Assembly (NCBI GenBank): GCA_038147155.1
Contig: JAYQTA010000002.1
Location: 195,595 to 259,594 of the forward strand
Direction of reading: 5' to 3'
Length of the DNA: 64,000 nt
Source of the DNA: Candidatus Australimonas brisbanensis
GTDB lineage: Bacteria; Chloroflexota; Dehalococcoidia; Lucifugimonadales; Australimonadaceae
In this document: piece by piece, positions 2,132 to 31,493 of the stretch
How positions within the stretch are numbered: the first letter of the stretch is position 1
Layout of the letters: every line of letters starts with the position of its first letter
Made by a program: the position numbers and the translations under genes
Notes under the pieces: model-generated
The model's input: the letters and a program-made list of their open reading frames with translations, nothing else
Told to the model about the DNA's origin: nothing
Database searches by the model: none

Positions 2132-3268
2132 ATGGGAGAGGTCGTCTTCGCCGCAGCCACCGTCCACGCCCCGCAGCTGCTCACGCGCCCGCCGCAGGAG
2201 GACCCAGCCCAGCTGGACGCCGACATCGCGGCCATGAACGCGCTGGGCGCGCTTCTGGACGAGACCACGCCCGACGTGCTGCTGCTCATCGGCATCGACC
2301 ATGTGGAGACGTTCTGGCTCACGGCGGTGCCGCAGTTCGCCATCATCACCGGCGCGCGTGCCACGGCCGAGTACGCCGGGCACACCTACGCCCCGTCCAT
2401 CCACCAGCCCTTCGCCCGCGGGCTGCTGGAGGGGCTGGTGGAGCGGGGGATAGACCTCTCCTACGCCCAGGACGCCCTGCTGGGACACGCCTTCGCCGTC
2501 CCGCTGGAGTACGTCCATGAGGGCCGGGGGATCCCGGTGGTGCCCCTGTTCGTCAACGCCTACCTGCCCCCGCTGCCCACGACGCAGCGATGCGTGGAGG
2601 TGGGCCAGGCCATCGGGCAGGTCATCGCCTCGCGCCCTGAGCGCGTGGCCATCCTGGCCTCCGGCGGCATGTCCCACTACCCCGGTACGTGGAAGTACTA
2701 CCACCCCGAGTACGGCTTCGACCACTGGGCCATCCAGGAGATCGAGGAGGGGCGCTTCTCCTCCCTGGTGGAGCTGACCGGCGAGCAGTTGGACGAGGTG
2801 GGCAACACCGAACTGCTCCCGTGGCTCATCATGCAGGGCGCCACGGGCGTCCAGCGGGGCGAGCTGCTCACCTACCAGCCCACCTCGCATCACGGCCACG
2901 CGGTGATGCGCTTCATCCCCGACCGGGGTGGGCGCGGCCAGGAGCACCAGGACATGCTCCCCTACGGGGGGTTCGAGTTCGCGGGGAAGGGGTACGAGTT
3001 CTACAAGTACCCCACGCCGGAGGAGTTCCCCCTCAACAACGCCCTCTACCTGCTGCGTACCGACCACACGCACCTGGAGCGCTTCCTGGACAGACCCGAC
3101 GCCTACTGCGAGGAGCGCGGGCTCTCGGCGGCCCAGGCCAAGGCGCTCAAGCAGATGACCACCGACGCGGTGGTGGCGGAGGGGGCGCACGGCATCCTGG
3201 CCATCACGGCCATGCTGGTGATCCAGCGCGCCAAGCGCGAGCGCGACGCCCAAAAGGCCGCTCGCTAG
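2132..3268 (+). CDS. class III extradiol ring-cleavage dioxygenase, single-chain LigB-domain + LigA-like C-terminal domain
   Basis: The N-terminal ~280 aa has LigB hallmarks (AATVHAPQL, LIGIDHVETF, SGGMSHYPG). The C-terminal ~90 aa (PLNNALYLLRTDHTHLERFLDRPDAYCEERGLSAAQAKAL...) resembles the LigA small subunit. Confidence 0.8.
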   Translation: MGEVVFAAATVHAPQLLTRPPQEDPAQLDADIAAMNALGALLDETTPDVLLLIGIDHVETFWLTAVPQFAIITGARATAEYAGHTYAPSIHQPFARGLLEGLVERGIDLSYAQDALLGHAFAVPLEYVHEGRGIPVVPLFVNAYLPPLPTTQRCVEVGQAIGQVIASRPERVAILASGGMSHYPGTWKYYHPEYGFDHWAIQEIEEGRFSSLVELTGEQLDEVGNTELLPWLIMQGATGVQRGELLTYQPTSHHGHAVMRFIPDRGGRGQEHQDMLPYGGFEFAGKGYEFYKYPTPEEFPLNNALYLLRTDHTHLERFLDRPDAYCEERGLSAAQAKALKQMTTDAVVAEGAHGILAITAMLVIQRAKRERDAQKAAR

Positions 3269-4263
3269 GGTAGCCTCGCCAGCGCGAGGCAGAAGCGCTC
3301 GTCCGCAGGCTCGTGGACGAACAGCTCGTCCAGGCGCAATCCCGCCGCCGCCAGCGCGGCGCGGGCCGAGTCCGGCGTGAACTTGTAAGAACTCTCCGTC
3401 CAGATGGACTCGCCCGCCGCCAGGTGGACGGTCATGTCCAGCGCCGGGATGAGCACCGTCTGCGCAACGCGCGCCACAAGGTGCATCTCGATACGCGAGG
3501 CCTCCCGGTTGAAGAAGGCCCGGTGCTCGAACGCCTCCGGGTCAAACGTGGCGCCCAGCTCGCGGTTCAGCACCCGCAGCACGTTGCGGTTGAACGCCGC
3601 CGTCACCCCCGCCGCATCGTCGTAGGCGGCCTCGATGACCGACTGCTCCTTCACCATGTCCATGCCCACCAGCAGGTGATCCCCCGGCTCCAGCAGGCCG
3701 CTCACGTCCCGCAGGAAGCGGGTGCGCTCCTCCGGGGAGAGATTGCCGATGGTCCCCCCCAGGAACAGCACCAGCCGTCCGCCCTGACTGGGAGGCACCT
3801 GGTCCAGGTGACGCTCGAAGTCCCCCACCACCCCGTGCACCTGCAGGAAGGGGAACTGGGCCAGGAGCGCGAGGGATGAATCCCGGATGATGGTGGGGCT
3901 CACGTCGAAGGGGACGTAGCGACGCAGGTGCTCCGGCGCGCTGGGCGCGCTCAGCAGCACGCGGGTCTTGGAGGCCGAGCCGGAGCCCAGTTCCACGATC
4001 TCCGCCGGGCACAGCTGTGCCATCAATCCCGCTGCGATGCGCTCCAGCAGCGCGCGCTCGGCGCGGGTTGGGTAGTACTCCGGCAGCTCGGTGATGCGCT
4101 CGAACAGCGCGGAGCCATTGGCGTCGTAGAAGTACTTGGGGGGCAGTTGCTTCGGGCTGAACGTGAGGCCGCGGTGCACGTCCTCGGCCAGGGTGGCGCC
4201 GAAGTCCGTCCCGTCCAGATGGTCGTCGAGGGTGAAGCGAGAGCCGGTGGTGGTGTGCGTCAT
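3265..4263 (-). CDS. egtD: L-histidine N-alpha-methyltransferase (ergothioneine biosynthesis EgtD)
   Basis: Starts at the internal ATG (4261-4263) of ORF 3265..4629. LPPKYFYDANGSALFERITELPEYYPTRAE...ELGSGSASKTR...AYDDAAGVTAAFNRNVL matches mycobacterial EgtD along its whole length. The upstream 122 codons of the ORF are Arg/Gly/Pro junk. Confidence 0.9.
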   Translation of the reverse strand: MTHTTTGSRFTLDDHLDGTDFGATLAEDVHRGLTFSPKQLPPKYFYDANGSALFERITELPEYYPTRAERALLERIAAGLMAQLCPAEIVELGSGSASKTRVLLSAPSAPEHLRRYVPFDVSPTIIRDSSLALLAQFPFLQVHGVVGDFERHLDQVPPSQGGRLVLFLGGTIGNLSPEERTRFLRDVSGLLEPGDHLLVGMDMVKEQSVIEAAYDDAAGVTAAFNRNVLRVLNRELGATFDPEAFEHRAFFNREASRIEMHLVARVAQTVLIPALDMTVHLAAGESIWTESSYKFTPDSARAALAAAGLRLDELFVHEPADERFCLALARLP

Positions 4264-4343
4264 GGGGCCTCGGCGCAACCCTACCAGGCGGCGCGAGCGG
4301 TGTCGAAGGGTCAGATGCAGCCAGGGGCCCCGGCGGTGCAGGC

Positions 4344-4808
4344 TCAGCCCAACCCGCGCTCCACCAGCAGGCGTAGCACGTCGGACAGCAGGAAGATGGC
4401 CAGGCCCAGCACCAGCGTCATCTGCACGTGGCCCAGGGCGTTGGCCGCCGTGCGCATTCGCCCACGGGGCGCGTCGGAGCCGGGGCGCCCCCGCCTGCCC
4501 ACCACCAGGAAGAACATCCAGGCAGAGAGGGCGATCTTCACGCCCAGCACCGCCCCGTAGGCCGCAGTGGAGGTGTCCTCGGACAGGCGGCTCACCGCCA
4601 GGATGCCGCCGGTGATGGCCAGCGTCCACATGGCCATGCCCACCAGCTGGCCGAACTCAGCCCCGGCGAATCGGGCCAGGGCCGGGGGGGCGATCCCGGC
4701 GCGCACGGCGGGACGCACCACCACCCAGTAGAAGATGCCGCCGCCCACCCACGCCACGGCGGCGATGGCATGGAGCCAGCGGATCAGCAGCAGCAGCGCA
4801 TCAGGCAT
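4344..4808 (-). CDS. CopD-like integral membrane protein (about 4 TM)
   Basis: RWLHAIAAVAWVGGGIFYWVV plus three more hydrophobic spans. High GC3. No clear RBS. Confidence 0.6.
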   Translation of the reverse strand: MPDALLLLIRWLHAIAAVAWVGGGIFYWVVVRPAVRAGIAPPALARFAGAEFGQLVGMAMWTLAITGGILAVSRLSEDTSTAAYGAVLGVKIALSAWMFFLVVGRRGRPGSDAPRGRMRTAANALGHVQMTLVLGLAIFLLSDVLRLLVERGLG

Positions 4809-4883
4809 GGGGGGATGCTAGCGCACGGAACGGGCAAGCCCAAGGGGGAGCCCCCTGGAACGAGCACGCGAAACGAGCGGGCA

Positions 4884-4912
4884 ACGACAAGCCCGGCCCT
4901 GGCGGGTACAAT
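4884..4912 (+). promoter_or_regulatory. candidate promoter of the ArsC-like gene
   Basis: ACGACA (4884-4889), 17 nt spacer, TACAAT (4907-4912), about 45 nt upstream of ATG 4957. Confidence 0.35.
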
Positions 4913-4956
4913 CGCCGCGACCACGCCGGGACCGCCCGGTGAACGTGAGGTGAGCG

Positions 4957-5307
4957 ATGGCTACCACGGTGAGGTTCTACTGGTACCCCAAGTGAACCAC
5001 CTGCCAGAAGGCGAGGGCGTGGCTCTCGCAGGAGGTGGTACCTTTCGAGGAACGTGACTACTTCAAGCAGCCCTTCAGCCGCGATGAGCTGGTGGCGCTG
5101 CTGGACGGGGCCTCGCCCCGCACGGTGTTCAACGCCAAGTCCGTCGCGTTCAAGAAGACCGGATTGAACGCGGACGAATTGCCCGATGCACGGTTGCTGG
5201 ACATGCTGCTGGAGGAGCCGCGCTACTTCAAGCGCCCGCTGGTGGTTGCCGATGGGCGGCTGCTGGTGGGACTCAACGCCCAGAAACTGGCAGAGGCGCT
5301 GGGCTGA
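4957..5307 (+). CDS. ArsC/Spx/YffB-family redox protein with in-frame TGA (4993-4995) at the first position of a U-x-x-C motif; candidate selenoprotein
   Basis: GAGG lies 6 nt before ATG 4957. Translation gives MATTVRFYWYPK-TGA-TTCQKARAWLSQEVVPFEERDYF..., which runs in frame into track ORF 5035..5307. The full 116-aa product aligns with the family layout (beta1 strand, CxxC-K-A-x-x-W-L, ...YFKRPL...). Confidence 0.6.
4996..5039 (+). other. SECIS-like stem-loop immediately 3' of the in-frame TGA
   Basis: ACCACCTGC (4996-5004) can pair with GCAGGAGGTGGT (5028-5039), giving 9 bp with a 3-nt bulge. An inner helix GAG (5013-5015)/CTC (5023-5025) caps a G/U-containing loop GGCGTGG. Confidence 0.4.
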
Positions 5308-5360
5308 TTTGGCGTAAGGTGAGGACTGGCTAACCAGTTCGATAACGACAGGAGAGACGG

Positions 5361-7109
5361 ATGCCCATCCGAGTCCTGCCGCCGGAGGTCGCTGCTGGCA
5401 TCGCCGCGGGTGAGGTCATCGAGCGGCCCGCCTCGGTGGTGAAGGAACTGGTGGACAACGCGCTGGACGCCGGCGCGCGCTCCCTCAGCGTGGAACTGGA
5501 GCAGGGAGGGCTGGCCCGCATCCGGGTGACCGACGATGGGTGCGGCATCCCGCAGGACGAGCTGCCCCTGGCCTTCACGCGCCACGCCACGTCCAAGATC
5601 GCCGCGCTGAAGGACCTCGACTCGCTCTCCACCATGGGCTTTCGTGGCGAGGCTCTGGCCTCCATCGCCGCCGCTTCGCGGGTGCGCCTGGCCTCTCGCC
5701 CGTCGCAGGCAGCAGGAGCGGCGTACCTGGAGATGGCAGGGGTGAGCGCGGGGGCATCCGGCACCGAGGCCGCCGCACCCGGCACCACCGTCACCGTGGA
5801 ATCGCTCTTCGCCTCCATCCCGGCACGCCTGAAGTTCCTGCGCTCGGTGTCTGCGGAGACGGCGCGGGTGCGGGCGGTGGTCGAGCACGCGGCCATGGCC
5901 TTCCCCGGCGTGCGCATGCGCCTGCGGGCTGACGGGCGCACCCTCTTCGAGAGTTCCGGCAACGGTGAGCTGCGTGAGGTGCTGGCCCAGGTGTTCGACG
6001 CCCGCACCGCTGCGGCGCTGCTTCCCGCGGTTCCCTCATCGCGCGCGCCGTACCCCGCGTACGGGTTCGTCTCGCCGCCCTCGGTGAGCCGGGCCAACCG
6101 CACGGGGATGCACCTGTTCGTCAACGGGCGCTGGATCACCAGCCGCACTCTCTCGGTGGCGGTTGAAGAAGCCTACCGGGGCCTGCTGATGGAGGGGCGC
6201 TACCCCCTCGCGGTGCTGTTCCTCCAGGTACCGCCGGCCGAGGTGGACGTGAACGTCCATCCCAACAAGCGGGAGGTGCGCTTCGTCCGCGACGCCGACG
6301 CCTTCTCCTCGGTGCAGCGCGCCGTTCGCGAGGTACTGCTGGAGGCCGAGCCGGTGCCCGAGGCGCCGGGGTTGCTGTCCAGCCCGATCCCGGACGCGCC
6401 TGCGCCCCTGGGCCTGCTCATGAGCGGTCTGACCGCACCGGCCCCGCCCGGCCCGCTGCCGGAGCCCGCCTTCCACGGAGTGGCCGAGCCTGCGGCAGCC
6501 TACGCGCCCACCGCACCGGCTCCGCAGGCAGGCCTGCCGCACCTGCGGGTGCTGGGGCAGGTGGCCTCTGCGTACATCGTGGCCGAGGGGCCCGACGGCC
6601 TCTACCTGGTGGACCAGCACGCCGCCCACGAGTCGGTGCTCTACTACCGGCTGCTGGCCGCATGGGAGGCGGGGCAGGGGCCTGCCGTGCAACCGCTGCT
6701 GGAGCCGCTGCCGTTGGACCTGAGCCACGCGGAGCAGGAGGCGGCGGAGGACGCCCGTGCGGAGCTGAGCCGCTACGGTGTGTCCCTAGAGCCCTTCGGG
6801 GCCGAGACGTGGCTGCTGCGCTCGCTCCCGGCTCTCGCCCGGCGGGTGGACCCGCGCCGCCTGGTGGCCGAGGTGCTGGAGGCGCACCGCCATCCCGGCG
6901 CCTACCCCGCCACTCACCAGGCCGTGGCTGCGTCCATCGCCTGCCACAGCGCCGTGCGCGCGGGCCAGGCGCTCAGCACCGAGGAGATGGAGGCGCTGGG
7001 CCGCGCGCTGGTGGAGGAGGCGAACCCCCAGCACTGCCCCCACGGGCGCCCCACCACGGTGCGGGTGTCCACGGCGGCGCTGGCCCGCGAATTCGGGAGG
7101 ACGGGATGA
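5361..7109 (+). CDS. mutL: DNA mismatch repair protein MutL
   Basis: N-terminal GHKL ATPase motifs (IAAGEVIERPASVVKELVDNALDAGA, VTDDGCGI, GFRGEALASI). C-terminal endonuclease-type domain (DQHAAHE, QHCPHGRPT). Confidence 0.95.
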   Translation: MPIRVLPPEVAAGIAAGEVIERPASVVKELVDNALDAGARSLSVELEQGGLARIRVTDDGCGIPQDELPLAFTRHATSKIAALKDLDSLSTMGFRGEALASIAAASRVRLASRPSQAAGAAYLEMAGVSAGASGTEAAAPGTTVTVESLFASIPARLKFLRSVSAETARVRAVVEHAAMAFPGVRMRLRADGRTLFESSGNGELREVLAQVFDARTAAALLPAVPSSRAPYPAYGFVSPPSVSRANRTGMHLFVNGRWITSRTLSVAVEEAYRGLLMEGRYPLAVLFLQVPPAEVDVNVHPNKREVRFVRDADAFSSVQRAVREVLLEAEPVPEAPGLLSSPIPDAPAPLGLLMSGLTAPAPPGPLPEPAFHGVAEPAAAYAPTAPAPQAGLPHLRVLGQVASAYIVAEGPDGLYLVDQHAAHESVLYYRLLAAWEAGQGPAVQPLLEPLPLDLSHAEQEAAEDARAELSRYGVSLEPFGAETWLLRSLPALARRVDPRRLVAEVLEAHRHPGAYPATHQAVAASIACHSAVRAGQALSTEEMEALGRALVEEANPQHCPHGRPTTVRVSTAALAREFGRTG

Positions 7110-7732
7110 GCGCCGCGCTGCGCGTACTCCTGGCCACGGCCAACCCCGCCAAGGCGGAGCACCTCGCCTGGCTGTGCGCGGGGCTGCGCGTCGAACCGGT
7201 GCATCCGGGCCCCGGTGGGGGGCCGCAGGTGGCCGAGGATGCGGCGAGCCACCTGGGCAATGCGGTGCGCAAGGCGGTGGCCTGGTCGGCGAGGCAGGGC
7301 GGCGTCGCGCTGGCCTCCGACGGGGGGCTGGTGGTGCCCGCGCTGGAGGGGGAGTGGAGTTCCCTCACCACCCGCCGGGCCACGGGCACCGGCCTGGAGA
7401 CGGACGAGGAGCGCGCCGGGCGGCTGCTGCGCCACATGGCGCGTTTGGCGGACGCGGAGCGCGCGGCCCACTGGGTGGAGGCCGTCGCCATCGCGCGTGA
7501 TGGCCGGTTGGTGGGCGCCTGGCAGGCCCAGGGCCTCGCCGGAGTCATCGCCCAGACCTATGCACCCCAGCCGGGCGCGGCGGACGGCTTCTGGGTCAGC
7601 GGGCTGTGGGCCGATGCGACCACCGGGCAGCGGCTGTGGGAGCTGGACGAGGCCGCCCGCGAGCGCCTCGCCGACCCGTGGCTGACCCTGGCCCTGCCCG
7701 CCCGCGACCTGCTGGCTCGCTTGGCAGGCTAG
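7106..7732 (+). CDS. divergent Ham1/RdgB-like (non-canonical NTP pyrophosphatase fold) protein
   Basis: Its ATG overlaps the mutL stop (ATGA). LLATANPAKAEHL, ASDGGLVVPALEG and GFWVSGLW align with RdgB ATGNxGK, DDSGL and FGYDP, but several catalytic positions are substituted. Confidence 0.6.
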   Translation: MSAALRVLLATANPAKAEHLAWLCAGLRVEPVHPGPGGGPQVAEDAASHLGNAVRKAVAWSARQGGVALASDGGLVVPALEGEWSSLTTRRATGTGLETDEERAGRLLRHMARLADAERAAHWVEAVAIARDGRLVGAWQAQGLAGVIAQTYAPQPGAADGFWVSGLWADATTGQRLWELDEAARERLADPWLTLALPARDLLARLAG

Positions 7733-8649
7733 GGCAGGCGCACGCCCTCCGGGCCCACGGCCACCAGGCCATCGGCCACCAACCGCCCCACCAGCCCCGT
7801 CAGCCACGCCCCATGCTCAGCGGGCTCGTACCCCTCACGCACCAGCGGGCCCAGAGTCTCCAGCGAGAGCGCAGCGCCGGGGGGCAGCGTCCGCAGCGCG
7901 GCGATGACGCGGCCCCGGTGCTGGCGCGTGGAGCCTGCGAAACGTCCCTGCTTGGGCACGTGGGGCACCGATGCCTCGGCGAGGGCCCGGCCGCCCTCAC
8001 CCGCAAGGGCCGGTGCGGCGGCGCACAGCGCCTGCAGGGGGCACCCCTCGCAGGAGGGGCGGGCGGCGGTGCAGATGCTCGCGCCGATATCCATCAGCGC
8101 CTGGTGCCACGCCGAAGCGTTCAGCGGCGCCTCGGGGCCCGGCACCAGCGCGGCCACCAGCGGGTCCAGGGCCGCGCGGGCAGGGGCCTGCGCGCCGTGG
8201 TGCACGCGCGAGAGCACCCGGTACACGTTGGTGTCGGCAACCGGCACCGCGGCCCCGAAGGCGAAGCAGGCCACGGCGGCGGCGGTGTAGGGGCCGATGC
8301 CCGGCAGCGCTAGCAGTGCCTCGACGGAGGCGGGCAGGACGCCCGCGCGCTCGCGCATCAGCGTCTGGGCTAGGCGGTGCAGTCGCACGGCCCGACCGTT
8401 GTACCCCATGCCCGCCCACACGCGGATCACGTCCCCCGGCGCGGCTGCGGCCAGCGCCTCCAGCGTGGGGAACGCCTCCAGGAACTCACGGTACTTGGGC
8501 ACCACGCGCTCCACCTGGGTCTGCTGGAGCATCACCTCGGAGACCAGGATGGCGTAGGGGTCGGCGGTGTGCCGCCACGGCAGATCGCGCGCCTGCGTGG
8601 CCCAGAAGGCGGCGACGGCTGCGTGCAGGGCGGCGGGGGCCGGGCTCAC
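7729..8649 (-). CDS. mutY: A/G-specific adenine glycosylase, short (actinobacterial-type) MutY
   Basis: Its GTG start overlaps the tlpA-like stop (GTGA). SEVMLQQTQV, HhH LPGIGPYTAAAV, catalytic VADTNVYRV, and a 4Fe-4S loop CTAARPSCEGCPLQALC. The short C-terminal FAGSTRQHRGRVIAAL region replaces the long NUDIX-like domain. Confidence 0.8.
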   Translation of the reverse strand: MSPAPAALHAAVAAFWATQARDLPWRHTADPYAILVSEVMLQQTQVERVVPKYREFLEAFPTLEALAAAAPGDVIRVWAGMGYNGRAVRLHRLAQTLMRERAGVLPASVEALLALPGIGPYTAAAVACFAFGAAVPVADTNVYRVLSRVHHGAQAPARAALDPLVAALVPGPEAPLNASAWHQALMDIGASICTAARPSCEGCPLQALCAAAPALAGEGGRALAEASVPHVPKQGRFAGSTRQHRGRVIAALRTLPPGAALSLETLGPLVREGYEPAEHGAWLTGLVGRLVADGLVAVGPEGVRLP

Positions 8650-9245
8650 GAGGCCAGCAGCGCGTCCAGCGCCGCGCGCAGCGCTTCCGGCGAGAGGGGG
8701 CCGATGATCTTGCGGACGATGCGGCCCTGCCGGTCCAGGAAGAACTTCTCCGGCACCCCGCGCACGCCGAAGGACACGCCCAGGCGTCCCTCGGCATCCA
8801 GCAGGTTGGGGTACCCCACGCCGTAGCGCTCGATGTGCCGCAGGCTCGCCCCCGCCTCGTCCCAGATGGCGATACCCACGAACTCCACGCCCCGGCCCGC
8901 GTACTCGCCGTACACGGCGGCGAGGCTCTCCGCCTCCAGGCGACAGGCGACGCACCAGGAGGACCAGAAGTCCACCAGTACGACCTTGCCGGCCAGCGAG
9001 GCGTTGTTCACCACGCCCGCGCCGGAGATGTCGAACCCGGAGAAGCTGGGGGTGCGCTGGAGGGTGACCGGCTGCTCGGCGGTCTCGTTGAACTCGGCCA
9101 GCCCCCCGGGGGCGCCGCCGGTGGCAACCAGCCCCCAGGCCAGCAGCCCCATCAGGGCCAGCACCGGGGACATGGCCAGTGCGAAGAGCGCGACCCGGCG
9201 GCGGGTCCAGCCGGTGGGAGTAGAGGAGGGGTCGCTCATGGGCAC
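8646..9245 (-). CDS. membrane-anchored TlpA/ResA-like thiol:disulfide oxidoreductase
   Basis: One N-terminal TM, then a thioredoxin fold with VLVDFWSSWCVACRLE (CxxC). The start may be ATG 9239 rather than GTG 9245. Confidence 0.85.
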   Translation of the reverse strand: MPMSDPSSTPTGWTRRRVALFALAMSPVLALMGLLAWGLVATGGAPGGLAEFNETAEQPVTLQRTPSFSGFDISGAGVVNNASLAGKVVLVDFWSSWCVACRLEAESLAAVYGEYAGRGVEFVGIAIWDEAGASLRHIERYGVGYPNLLDAEGRLGVSFGVRGVPEKFFLDRQGRIVRKIIGPLSPEALRAALDALLAS

Positions 9246-30200: not shown

Positions 30201-31493
30201 CTACTCCAGCCCGGCCCGCGTGAAGATGGCGTCCACGTGCCTGGTGTAGTAGCCGTAGTCGAACAGCTCGTCCAGCTGGGTTTTGGAGAGCTTGGCCTGC
30301 ACCGTGGGATCCTTGCGCACCAGATCCCGGAAGTCCTTGTTCTGTTCCCAGGTGGAGGCCGCGTGGCGCTGGGCAAGGCGGTAGCCCTCCTCTCGGGCCA
30401 TCCCCGCCTCCACCAGCGAGAGCATCACCCGCTGGGAGAAGACCAGCCCGCGGGTGGACTCGATGTTGGTCATCATCCGTTCGGGGAAGACCCGGATGCC
30501 GTTGATGATGTATGTGAACAGATCGAGGATGTAGTCCAGCGCCATAGTGGCGTCGGGCAGGATGATGCGCTCTGCGGAGGAGTGGGAGATGTCCCGCTCA
30601 TGCCAGAGGGCCACGTTCTCCAGGGCCGTCACGGCGTTGCCCCTGATCAGGCGCGCCAGCCCGCACACGCGCTCCGACAGGTCGGGGTTGCGCTTGTGGG
30701 GCATGGCGGACGAGCCCGTCTGCCCCTCGCCGAACGGCTCCTCTACCTCGTGCACCTCGGTGCGCTGGAGGCCCCGAATCTCGGTGGCGAACTTCTCCAG
30801 CGAGGCTGCCACCACGGCCAGGGTGCTCACGAAGTAGGCATGGCGGTCGCGCTGGACGATCTGGTTGGAGATGGGCGCGTAGGGGATGCCCAGCGCCTCA
30901 CACGCGTAGGTCTCCACCTCCAGGGGCACCGTGGCGTGGGTGCCCACGGCGCCCGATATCTTCCCCACGGAGACCTGCGCTGCGGCCTCGGCCAGGCGCG
31001 CGCGGTTGCGGCGCATCTCGTCCCACCACAGCGCCAGCTTGAGTCCGAAGGTGATGGGCTCGGCGTGGACGCCGTGGGTGCGCCCCATCATCAGCGTGGC
31101 CCGGTGCTCTAGCGCCTTGGCCCGCAGCGCCTCGATGAGCCGGTCGACCTCAGCAAGCAGGAGGGCGGACGCGTCGCGCAGCTGGAGGCCCGTGGCGGTG
31201 TCCCACACATCGTTGGAGGTCAGACCCAGATGCACCCAGCGCCCCTCGGGGCCCAGGGAGGAGGTGACGGAGTAGAGGAACGCCGTCACATCGTGCTTGG
31301 TCTGGGCGAACTTCTCGGCGAGCTTGGCCTGATCCCAGGTGGCCCTGCGTATCTTGGCCATGTCCGCCTCGGGCACCACGCCCAGGCGGGTCCACGCCTC
31401 GCAGACGGCCACCTCCACCGCGAGCCACCGGTCGTACTTGCCGGCGTCGGTCCAGATGGCCTTCATCGCCTCACGGGCGTAGCGGTCGATCAC
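30201..31493 (-). CDS. purB: adenylosuccinate lyase
   Basis: GGAGG lies 7 nt before GTG 31493, which is internal to ORF ..31736. IDRYAREAMKAIW, GLTSNDVWDTA, GSSAMPHKRNP. Confidence 0.95.
   Translation of the reverse strand: MIDRYAREAMKAIWTDAGKYDRWLAVEVAVCEAWTRLGVVPEADMAKIRRATWDQAKLAEKFAQTKHDVTAFLYSVTSSLGPEGRWVHLGLTSNDVWDTATGLQLRDASALLLAEVDRLIEALRAKALEHRATLMMGRTHGVHAEPITFGLKLALWWDEMRRNRARLAEAAAQVSVGKISGAVGTHATVPLEVETYACEALGIPYAPISNQIVQRDRHAYFVSTLAVVAASLEKFATEIRGLQRTEVHEVEEPFGEGQTGSSAMPHKRNPDLSERVCGLARLIRGNAVTALENVALWHERDISHSSAERIILPDATMALDYILDLFTYIINGIRVFPERMMTNIESTRGLVFSQRVMLSLVEAGMAREEGYRLAQRHAASTWEQNKDFRDLVRKDPTVQAKLSKTQLDELFDYGYYTRHVDAIFTRAGLE

Follow-up and report, generated by a model that had tools for sequence, protein, structure and literature searches.

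A short gene at 4957-5307 of the window (64,000 nucleotides (nt) of the forward strand of contig JAYQTA010000002.1, Candidatus Australimonas brisbanensis, Dehalococcoidia) is interrupted by an in-frame TGA. This gene very likely encodes selenocysteine (Sec) and belongs to the ArsC/Spx (Pfam accession PF03960) thioredoxin-fold superfamily. Its features and those of its neighbours are collected in Table 1. The ORF listed for the locus covers only 5035-5307 (90 residues, GTG start). A better placed start lies upstream, where a Shine-Dalgarno-like GAGG is followed by a 6-nt spacer and an ATG at 4957. From this ATG the frame reads 12 codons (MATTVRFYWYPK), the TGA, and then TTCQKARAWLSQEVVPFEERDYF, and it is continuous with the listed ORF, which ends at a second TGA (5305-5307). 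An initial reading made from the letters alone (the sequence-only reading) had proposed this ribosome-binding site, this start and this frame through the TGA. All three are confirmed by the sequence, as is its point that a start at 5035 would yield a product that has lost both the active site and the first β-strand.

Table 1. Features of the selenoprotein locus and neighbouring genes (window coordinates).
Feature	Position	Strand	Details and basis
Full coding sequence, probable ArsC/Spx-superfamily selenoprotein	4957..5307	+	116 residues; Sec is codon 13; stop TGA 5305-5307; translation, Pfam, TIGR01617, Spx match
UGA codon, probable Sec (U13 of U-T-T-C)	4993..4995	+	orthologue and homologue codons; alignment with Spx Cys10
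TGC codon, resolving Cys16 of UxxC	5002..5004	+	column invariant; aligns with Spx Cys13
Conserved core hairpin, probable SECIS	5011..5029	+	arms 5011-5017/5023-5029, loop 5018-5022 CGUGG; RNAalifold, covariation, codon constraint
Lower stem, 5' arm	4996..5005	+	pairs with 5031-5039; lineage-specific, in the minimum free energy fold of the window
Lower stem, 3' arm	5031..5039	+	lineage-specific, in the minimum free energy fold of the window
Shine-Dalgarno-like GAGG	4947..4950	+	sequence reading; GGAGG/GGAG in orthologues
Promoter-like element ACGACA, 17 nt, TACAAT	4884..4912	+	45 nt 5' of the start codon; consensus match only
mutL	5361..7109	+	downstream gene, 53-nt gap; Pfam MutL_C, DNA_mis_repair, HATPase_c
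CopD-like gene	4344-4808	-	starts 148 nt upstream of ATG 4957; Pfam 29.8 bits against a cutoff of 32.1
egtD-like histidine methyltransferase	3265-4290	-	Methyltransf_33, 362 bits; ~670 nt from the selenoprotein gene

Reading the TGA as cysteine raises the Pfam ArsC (PF03960) score from 42.8 to 61.3 bits, well above the cutoff of 24. The match now begins at profile position 1 and extends over positions 1-77 of 79. The best match among solved structures is Bacillus subtilis Spx (E = 2e-19, residues 5-111), with weaker matches to YffB (4e-11) and R773 ArsC (8e-7). Sec13-T-T-Cys16 aligns on Spx C10-T-S-C13, which puts the UxxC motif at the start of helix α1. The TGA thus stands where this family carries the redox-active first cysteine of CxxC, directly after the first β-strand, as the sequence-only reading had held.

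We scanned a species-representative genome collection once, identified 215 relatives and retained the best 80. These 80 comprise 57 Chloroflexota metagenome-assembled genomes (MAGs; mostly Dehalococcoidia, including SAR202) and 23 Bacillota, and the closest among them is MAG JAYNIL01 (contig JAYNIL010000006.1, locus L008), at 90% identity. Comparison of the codon at the Sec position, a check that the sequence-only reading had suggested, gave TGA at all Chloroflexota loci (65/65 Chloroflexota-type orthologues) and TGT or TGC in 23/23 Bacillota homologues. All 65 orthologues remain in frame across the TGA and keep the N-terminal β-strand, so the contrary case it had raised, in which orthologues begin at the equivalent of 5035 and have no such strand, does not apply. 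Their start codons are preceded by GGAGG or GGAG and lie 12 codons upstream of the TGA, except in one orthologue (11 codons).

Identity to the window protein ranges from 34 to 90% over the Chloroflexota-type orthologues. Outside the window's own lineage it is just 34-49%, and the TGA has therefore survived a long divergence. The Sec residue lies in a conserved flank, F-Y-W-[WY]-P-[KR]-U-[ST]-[ST]-C. At the protein level the N-terminal strand is conserved, and so is the S-S-C-R-K motif downstream of the TGA, with variation at synonymous sites; the resolving-cysteine column is invariant in every Sec-type and Cys-type sequence. The nearest proteins in a first protein search were annotated at 89-98 residues and covered only the C-terminal 76-81% of the query. 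In the DNA of seven relatives with such truncated calls, the corresponding codon is TGA, a start preceded by a Shine-Dalgarno sequence lies upstream, and the N-terminal strand is conserved.

One retained locus carries an unexpected taxonomic label. The contig CATMQD010000066.1 (L010) is assigned to an uncultured Flavobacteriales MAG. Over its UxxC gene and the mutS, HAD-like and mutL genes around it, it is almost indistinguishable from the Dehalococcoidia/Chloroflexota contigs L009, L011 and L012, and it is probably mis-binned.

A conserved hairpin follows the TGA at the distance expected of a bacterial selenocysteine insertion sequence (SECIS). Our gap-free alignment of 54 unique sequences starts 3 nt ahead of the UGA and runs to 63 nt beyond it. 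From this alignment RNAalifold derives one helix only, formed by columns 22-28/34-40 (window positions 5011-5017/5023-5029). Standard pairs form in 98.9% of the cells of this helix, and compensatory double changes occur at three of its seven pairs (CG/UA/UG, AU/CG and AU/GC). Neither the pairing score nor the covariation score was reached by any of 500 shuffled alignments, and moving the 3' partner by one to three columns lowers pairing to 32-64%. The covariation among aligned orthologues that the sequence-only reading had proposed to look for is thus present. The apical loop reads AGUUG in most orthologues and CGUGG in the window lineage, with an invariant G and U; in the window lineage C5018-G5022 can form an eighth pair, which leaves the loop GUG.

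The codons that build this hairpin are fixed. At codons +8, +9 and +10 from the Sec codon we found GAG in 54/54, UUG in 49/50 and CUC in 57/58 cases, so that their synonymous entropy is close to 0. At other places in the gene, Glu, Leu and Arg residues of equal conservation draw freely on their synonymous codons (entropy 0.9-2.3; 0.9-1.8 for Glu and Leu). The constraint on these codons therefore acts on the RNA and not on the protein alone. Cys-type Bacillota homologues retain just one to four of the seven hairpin pairs.

The codon before the UGA behaves in a similar way. It is CGT, with zero synonymous variation, in 55/55 orthologues that bear arginine at this position, and AAG (Lys) in the window lineage (4990-4992). 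Other arginine codons of the same gene use four to five synonyms (entropy 1.6-2.3). Judged from these codon patterns, the invariant CGT suggests that the context 5' of the Sec codon may also be constrained at the nucleotide level.

The sequence-only reading had described a longer stem-loop, at 4996-5039, directly after the TGA. The predicted fold of the window agrees with that description (4996-5002/5033-5039, 5004-5005/5031-5032 and 5011-5018/5022-5029 paired, apical loop GUG), and its upper part is the conserved hairpin. The lower part is not conserved: over the alignment, 49% of the cells of the long lower stem (4996-5005/5031-5039) are paired, which equals the slid controls, and we rejected it as a conserved element.

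Published criteria for bacterial SECIS (bSECIS) elements are a loop of 3-9 nt, an upper stem of 4-16 bp, a G in the first two loop positions, a distance of 16-37 nt from the UGA and a minimum free energy (MFE) of at most -7.5 kcal/mol (PMC13188914). The window hairpin agrees with these values: it has a stem of 7-8 bp, a loop of 3-5 nt, a distance of 22-23 nt from the UGA, and an MFE of -11.9 kcal/mol for the core and -25.1 kcal/mol for 4993-5045. Its loop, C-G-U-G-G, also fits the bacterial consensus N1-G-[G|U]-N-N2 with N1/N2 pairing (PMC13188914, Fig. 2). The suggestion that the hairpin has the arrangement of a bacterial SECIS is borne out by these comparisons. The hairpin has no sequence similarity to the E. 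coli fdhF and fdnG elements.

A single database sequence departs from the TGA pattern. One Logan contig (L090, 365-736; protein entry P0016) falls inside the Sec clade and has TGC at the Sec position. It keeps the hairpin GUAAGGG-AGUUG-CUCUUAC and the preceding CGT, both intact. Remnant SECIS elements after Sec-to-Cys conversion have been described (PMC1794560), and L090 fits that pattern. Either Cys replaced Sec very recently in this sequence, or that assembly contains a wrong base call.

These observations allow a mechanism to be outlined. The ribosome would meet the UGA at 4993-4995 while the hairpin at 5011-5029, with its G-U apical loop 22-23 nt downstream, is still folded. The hairpin would then recruit SelB-GTP-Sec-tRNASec, which would out-compete release factor 2 and permit selenium insertion. 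In the finished protein, Sec13 and Cys16 most likely alternate between selenol/thiol and selenenylsulfide forms. In selenoproteins generally, Sec tends to occupy catalytic sites. By analogy, the product is most likely a thiol-disulfide oxidoreductase or reductase, an assignment that we make with moderate to low confidence. A role as a Spx-type regulator that binds RNA polymerase appears less likely, because the protein has no Spx C-terminal tail and carries Ser at the Gly52 position. In Spx, Gly52 forms part of the interface with the C-terminal domain of the RNA polymerase α subunit, and the C-terminal tail is the site of ClpXP/YjbH control.

Several observations weigh against a selenoprotein with such a role. 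First, the stem-loop at 4996-5039, taken alone, folds near chance level (MFE -25.6 kcal/mol, z = -1.95; 7/200 shuffles fold as well, at 70% GC). The hairpin also lies within the coding sequence of a conserved helix, so that its nucleotide conservation is partly driven by the protein, and the AU-to-CG change, seen in 18 sequences, may have arisen just once, within one subclade. Rfam gives neither a SECIS nor any other match at gathering thresholds, and at E <= 10 on 4900-5120 its sole hit is a chance gut-2 match on the opposite strand. Second, the decoding machinery does not appear near the gene. tblastn searches with E. coli SelA, SelB and SelD gave no homologue, either within the 64 kb of the window or across ~1.3 Mb of sequence flanking the orthologues, and ARAGORN called no tRNA-Sec for the window or for 54 orthologous loci. 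Third, two scans, one of the window and one of the Chloroflexota flanks, found no second selenoprotein. The window scan, based on GC content at third codon positions, returned the known site, one ordinary stop followed in the same frame by purD (34842, - strand), and off-frame artefacts. The homology scan compared 8,308 TGA-spanning peptides with all Chloroflexota flanks; it recovered the arsC(U) gene, its positive control, 34 times and no other credible candidate. Finally, the oxidoreductase role is deduced from homology and from what is generally known of Sec usage, and the marginal TIGR01617 score (75.4 against a cutoff of 75.05) is compatible with a regulatory role.

Sec decoding in the phylum is supported from the literature alone: Chloroflexi (Chloroflexota) are reported to decode Sec (PMC1794560, PMC5389517, PMC13582414), with unusual tRNASec structures (PMC5389517). 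A tRNA-Sec of the 8/4 acceptor/T-stem type is reported for Chloroflexi. The unusual structures, together with the missing Sec-synthesis genes in the window and orthologous flanks, would also suit a different kind of recoding. A tRNA with a UCA anticodon could insert Cys or another residue at the UGA, perhaps with the help of a SelB-like factor and the hairpin, and so give a selenium-free CxxC protein. Cysteine is evidently tolerated at this position, as the Bacillota homologues and L090 show. We nevertheless regard such recoding as improbable: one TGA-to-TGY change would end the need for it, yet TGA is kept in every orthologue along with a costly constraint on the hairpin, and at other places in the window TGA acts as a normal stop. 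It ends 11/34 confident long ORFs, including mutL and the selenoprotein gene itself, which also excludes a genetic code in which UGA is reassigned.

A slightly smaller probability still attaches to the TGA as a true stop. The 12 codons before it would then form a leader ORF, the hairpin would be a regulatory or attenuator element, and the product would be a truncated protein begun at a downstream start such as the GTG at 5035. Every gene caller annotated truncated products of this kind (89-102 residues), and the fold of the single sequence is not strongly significant. No downstream start is conserved, however, and the callers' choices differ from one another (MLLQ..., MQKG..., MEERD..., MRELLLQ..., MSCRK...). 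The residues between the TGA and these starts are conserved as protein and include the invariant resolving cysteine. In every case the supposed leader is in frame and has 11-12 codons; it encodes β-strand 1, aligned with Spx and the Bacillota homologues. The Cys-type homologues read straight through. A protein begun downstream would have neither this strand nor the active site.

A pseudogene, or a TGC or TGT misread or misassembled as TGA, is hardly credible. TGC is one base away and occurs in L090, but 65 independent assemblies, which stem from different projects and sequencing technologies and include closed long-read chromosomes, all have TGA here; this comparison disposes of the assembly error considered in the sequence-only reading. 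Closed Dehalococcoidia chromosomes with the orthologue include OZ244811.1, OZ242009.1 and OY730415.1. Both halves of the gene are conserved as protein, with freely varying synonymous sites.

The promoter-like element 5' of the gene is the sole sigma-70-like match in 4750-5450, where 0.1 would be expected by chance, and its TACAAT block (GGGTACAATCGCCGCGACCAC) is kept in the close relative L001. No terminator-like site was found in 4750-5450. Because no terminator precedes mutL and the two genes are syntenic in 59/59 loci, the selenoprotein gene is probably co-transcribed with mutL. In one subclade a conserved block lies upstream of the gene; it corresponds to the 3' end of rpe plus rpmB on the - strand and belongs to no Rfam family, and we rejected it as an element of the system.

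The link to mutL extends through the clade. We compared synteny at 4957-7109 of the window, at 7069-12814 of L002 and around position 10001 of L009-L065. Of the TGA loci, 59 extend far enough downstream to be judged, and in all 59 the UxxC gene is found directly upstream of mutL, which shares its strand and lies within about 0.4-1.8 kb. Most Dehalococcoidia and SAR202 loci also carry mutS directly upstream, and a gene for a 145-residue, weakly HAD-like protein between the UxxC gene and mutL. The Bacillota Cys-type loci differ: gcvH follows in 23/23 and a thioredoxin-like gene in 19/23, with no mutS or mutL nearby.

This linkage, held at about 35-45% identity and set against the gcvH context of the Bacillota relatives, raises the idea of a functional coupling, in Chloroflexota, between DNA mismatch repair and this Spx-like protein with its Sec residue. 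We consider the idea speculative and rather unlikely. As one example of such coupling, a selenol redox factor could hold in reduced form the Cys-rich site at which the MutL endonuclease binds metal; the window MutL carries a C-P-H-G-R-P motif. Alternatively, mismatch repair or mutation rate might be tuned to oxidative stress. A literature search for a link between the ArsC family and mutS or mutL returned nothing relevant, and we regard the invariant linkage to mutL and mutS as a lead.

Other genes nearby were also noted. Downstream of the selenoprotein gene, window 5361-8700 holds mutL, a Ham1-family non-canonical NTP pyrophosphatase and, on the opposite strand, an HhH-GPD glycosylase, so that genes for DNA repair and damage control follow one another here. 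In L001 (2228-6106), a relative with the same gene order, an AhpC/TSA peroxiredoxin gene comes next. On the upstream side, the sequence-only reading had put the egtD and CopD-like genes at a distance on the scale of 80 nt; both lie farther off (Table 1). The egtD-like gene abuts a LigB-type extradiol dioxygenase gene on the opposite strand (2132-3268, + strand), and no egtB-like neighbour was found among the ORFs examined. Elsewhere in the window, ARAGORN reports a 600-nt permuted 'tmRNA*' (30556-31156, - strand) whose tag peptide would be ATPTCRSACAGWRA. At gathering thresholds Rfam has no tmRNA match in any part of the window, and the ARAGORN call is therefore probably a false positive in GC-rich sequence.

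The truncated calls point to a wider annotation problem. We identified at least 1,802 database proteins that match the clade profile at E <= 1e-8, and almost all of the top 120 are truncated calls of 94-102 residues. They are named 'arsenate reductase', 'Spx/MgsR family transcriptional regulator' or 'hypothetical protein [SAR202]'. A few full-length calls carry Trp at the site, as under genetic code 4, where the DNA has TGA (L091, L092). The database entries compared here are P0016-P0133. This mis-annotation is clear, widespread and systematic, and a dedicated model or read-through rule would restore the active site in hundreds of Chloroflexota, Dehalococcoidia and SAR202 genomes. The 54-sequence alignment provides a well-supported, co-varying bacterial SECIS and could seed a covariance model, given that Rfam holds no family that detects it. 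Conservation of the Sec form through a phylum abundant in the deep ocean and subsurface would imply that these organisms depend on selenium for at least this protein, which bears on trace-element ecology.

Among proteins of solved structure, Spx (PDB 1Z3E, 6GHB, 3GFK), the redox regulator of Bacillus subtilis that binds RNA polymerase, is the nearest. The similarity extends over 107 residues and is strongest at the active site, where the window protein reads U-T-T-C-Q-K-A-R-A-W-L and Spx reads C10-T-S-C13-R-K-A-R-A-W-L. The R-R-P motif (Spx R91/R92/P93) is also conserved. The first redox residue, however, is Sec in the window protein and Cys in Spx. The window protein is also shorter (116 residues against 131), with the ~15 missing residues including the C-terminal tail. 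It carries Ser at the Gly52 position (G, S or A in the clade) and Lys for Arg60, and its host is a member of Chloroflexota and not of Bacillota. With the TGA read as Cys, the window protein just reaches the TIGR01617 (Spx/MgsR) cutoff, and other clade members score below it, at 66.1, 69.0 and 70.6. With no such tail and with Ser at the Gly52 position, the protein does not appear to be a typical Spx.

The closest full-length Cys homologues in cultured organisms are the Cys-type ArsC proteins of Bacillota (Listeria, Niallia, Bacillus, Enterococcus, Vagococcus), at 26-38% identity. Their motif, F-Y-W-Y-P-K-C-[ST]-T-C-[RQK]-K-A-[KR]-x-W-L, is nearly that of the window protein (F-Y-W-Y-P-K-U-T-T-C-Q-K-A-R-A-W-L). 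They differ in having Cys for Sec, in the absence of the hairpin and in their TIGR01617 scores of 105-110 bits, clearly over the cutoff. We take these gcvH-linked proteins to be of the YusI type of B. subtilis.

Two other ArsC families were considered and rejected. The window protein is not a glutaredoxin-coupled arsenate reductase ArsC (TIGR00014, 48.4 against 106 bits; NF007456, 30.8 against 242 bits). The Sec forms of that group, called 'Arsenate reductase 1' (TIGR00014), carry UxxS (PMC2398784), unlike the UxxC of the window protein. NF041106, the 'ArsC family (seleno)protein' model (ArsC_rel_Se_1), shares the superfamily, a similar length and the Sec position in UxxC. The window protein scores 32.4 bits against it and clade members 32.1-37.5, far below the cutoff of 85. 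By these profile scores the clade is a subfamily distinct from NF041106, and annotation pipelines therefore fail to rescue its genes.

Selenoproteins of this kind have been reported before. ArsC-like selenoproteins were described in 2006 (PMC1794560). A 2008 survey of Global Ocean Sampling (GOS) data listed 'Arsenate reductase 2, cd03032, UxxC' with 42 Sec and 238 Cys sequences (PMC2398784, Zhang & Gladyshev). Later reviews list an 'Arsenate reductase-like protein, UxxC' (PMC9312934, PMC13188914), which a 2026 review equates with NF041106 (PMC13188914). The statement in the sequence-only reading that metagenomic surveys had reported ArsC-like selenoproteins is thus correct (PMC1794560, PMC2398784). 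The GOS family (cd03032 ArsC_Spx) shares with the window protein the ArsC/Spx fold, a length of ~110-120 residues and Sec as the first residue of an N-terminal UxxC.

By its motifs and scores, the published GOS UxxC family is heterogeneous. A minority of its reads belong to the same clade as the window protein (JCVI_READ_1318105, 1121231 and 1095390070075; PMC2398784 supplement). Read 1318105 shares 37% identity with the window protein (E = 1e-25), fits the clade profile at 99.9% probability and shows the same pattern of NCBIfam scores. Most members are different: they read WYY-x-R-G-G-U-T-T-C ... N-[LM]-R-A-P-T, score 116 bits against NF041106 and are 24% identical to the window protein. Reads 2161197 and 1093018614276 (...C-T-K-T-U-S-A-C-R-K-A-V-A-L-L...) look like a third type.

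The kind of protein is thus already known, its subtype has been seen before as anonymous marine reads, and our understanding of Sec decoding itself is unchanged by the finding. The GOS entries come without taxon, gene context or SECIS covariation. By comparison, the present analysis adds the assignment to Chloroflexota, Dehalococcoidia and SAR202, where the gene is near-universal in the genomes sampled, an instance at 70% GC, the covariation of the SECIS, the annotation gap and the linkage to mutS and mutL.

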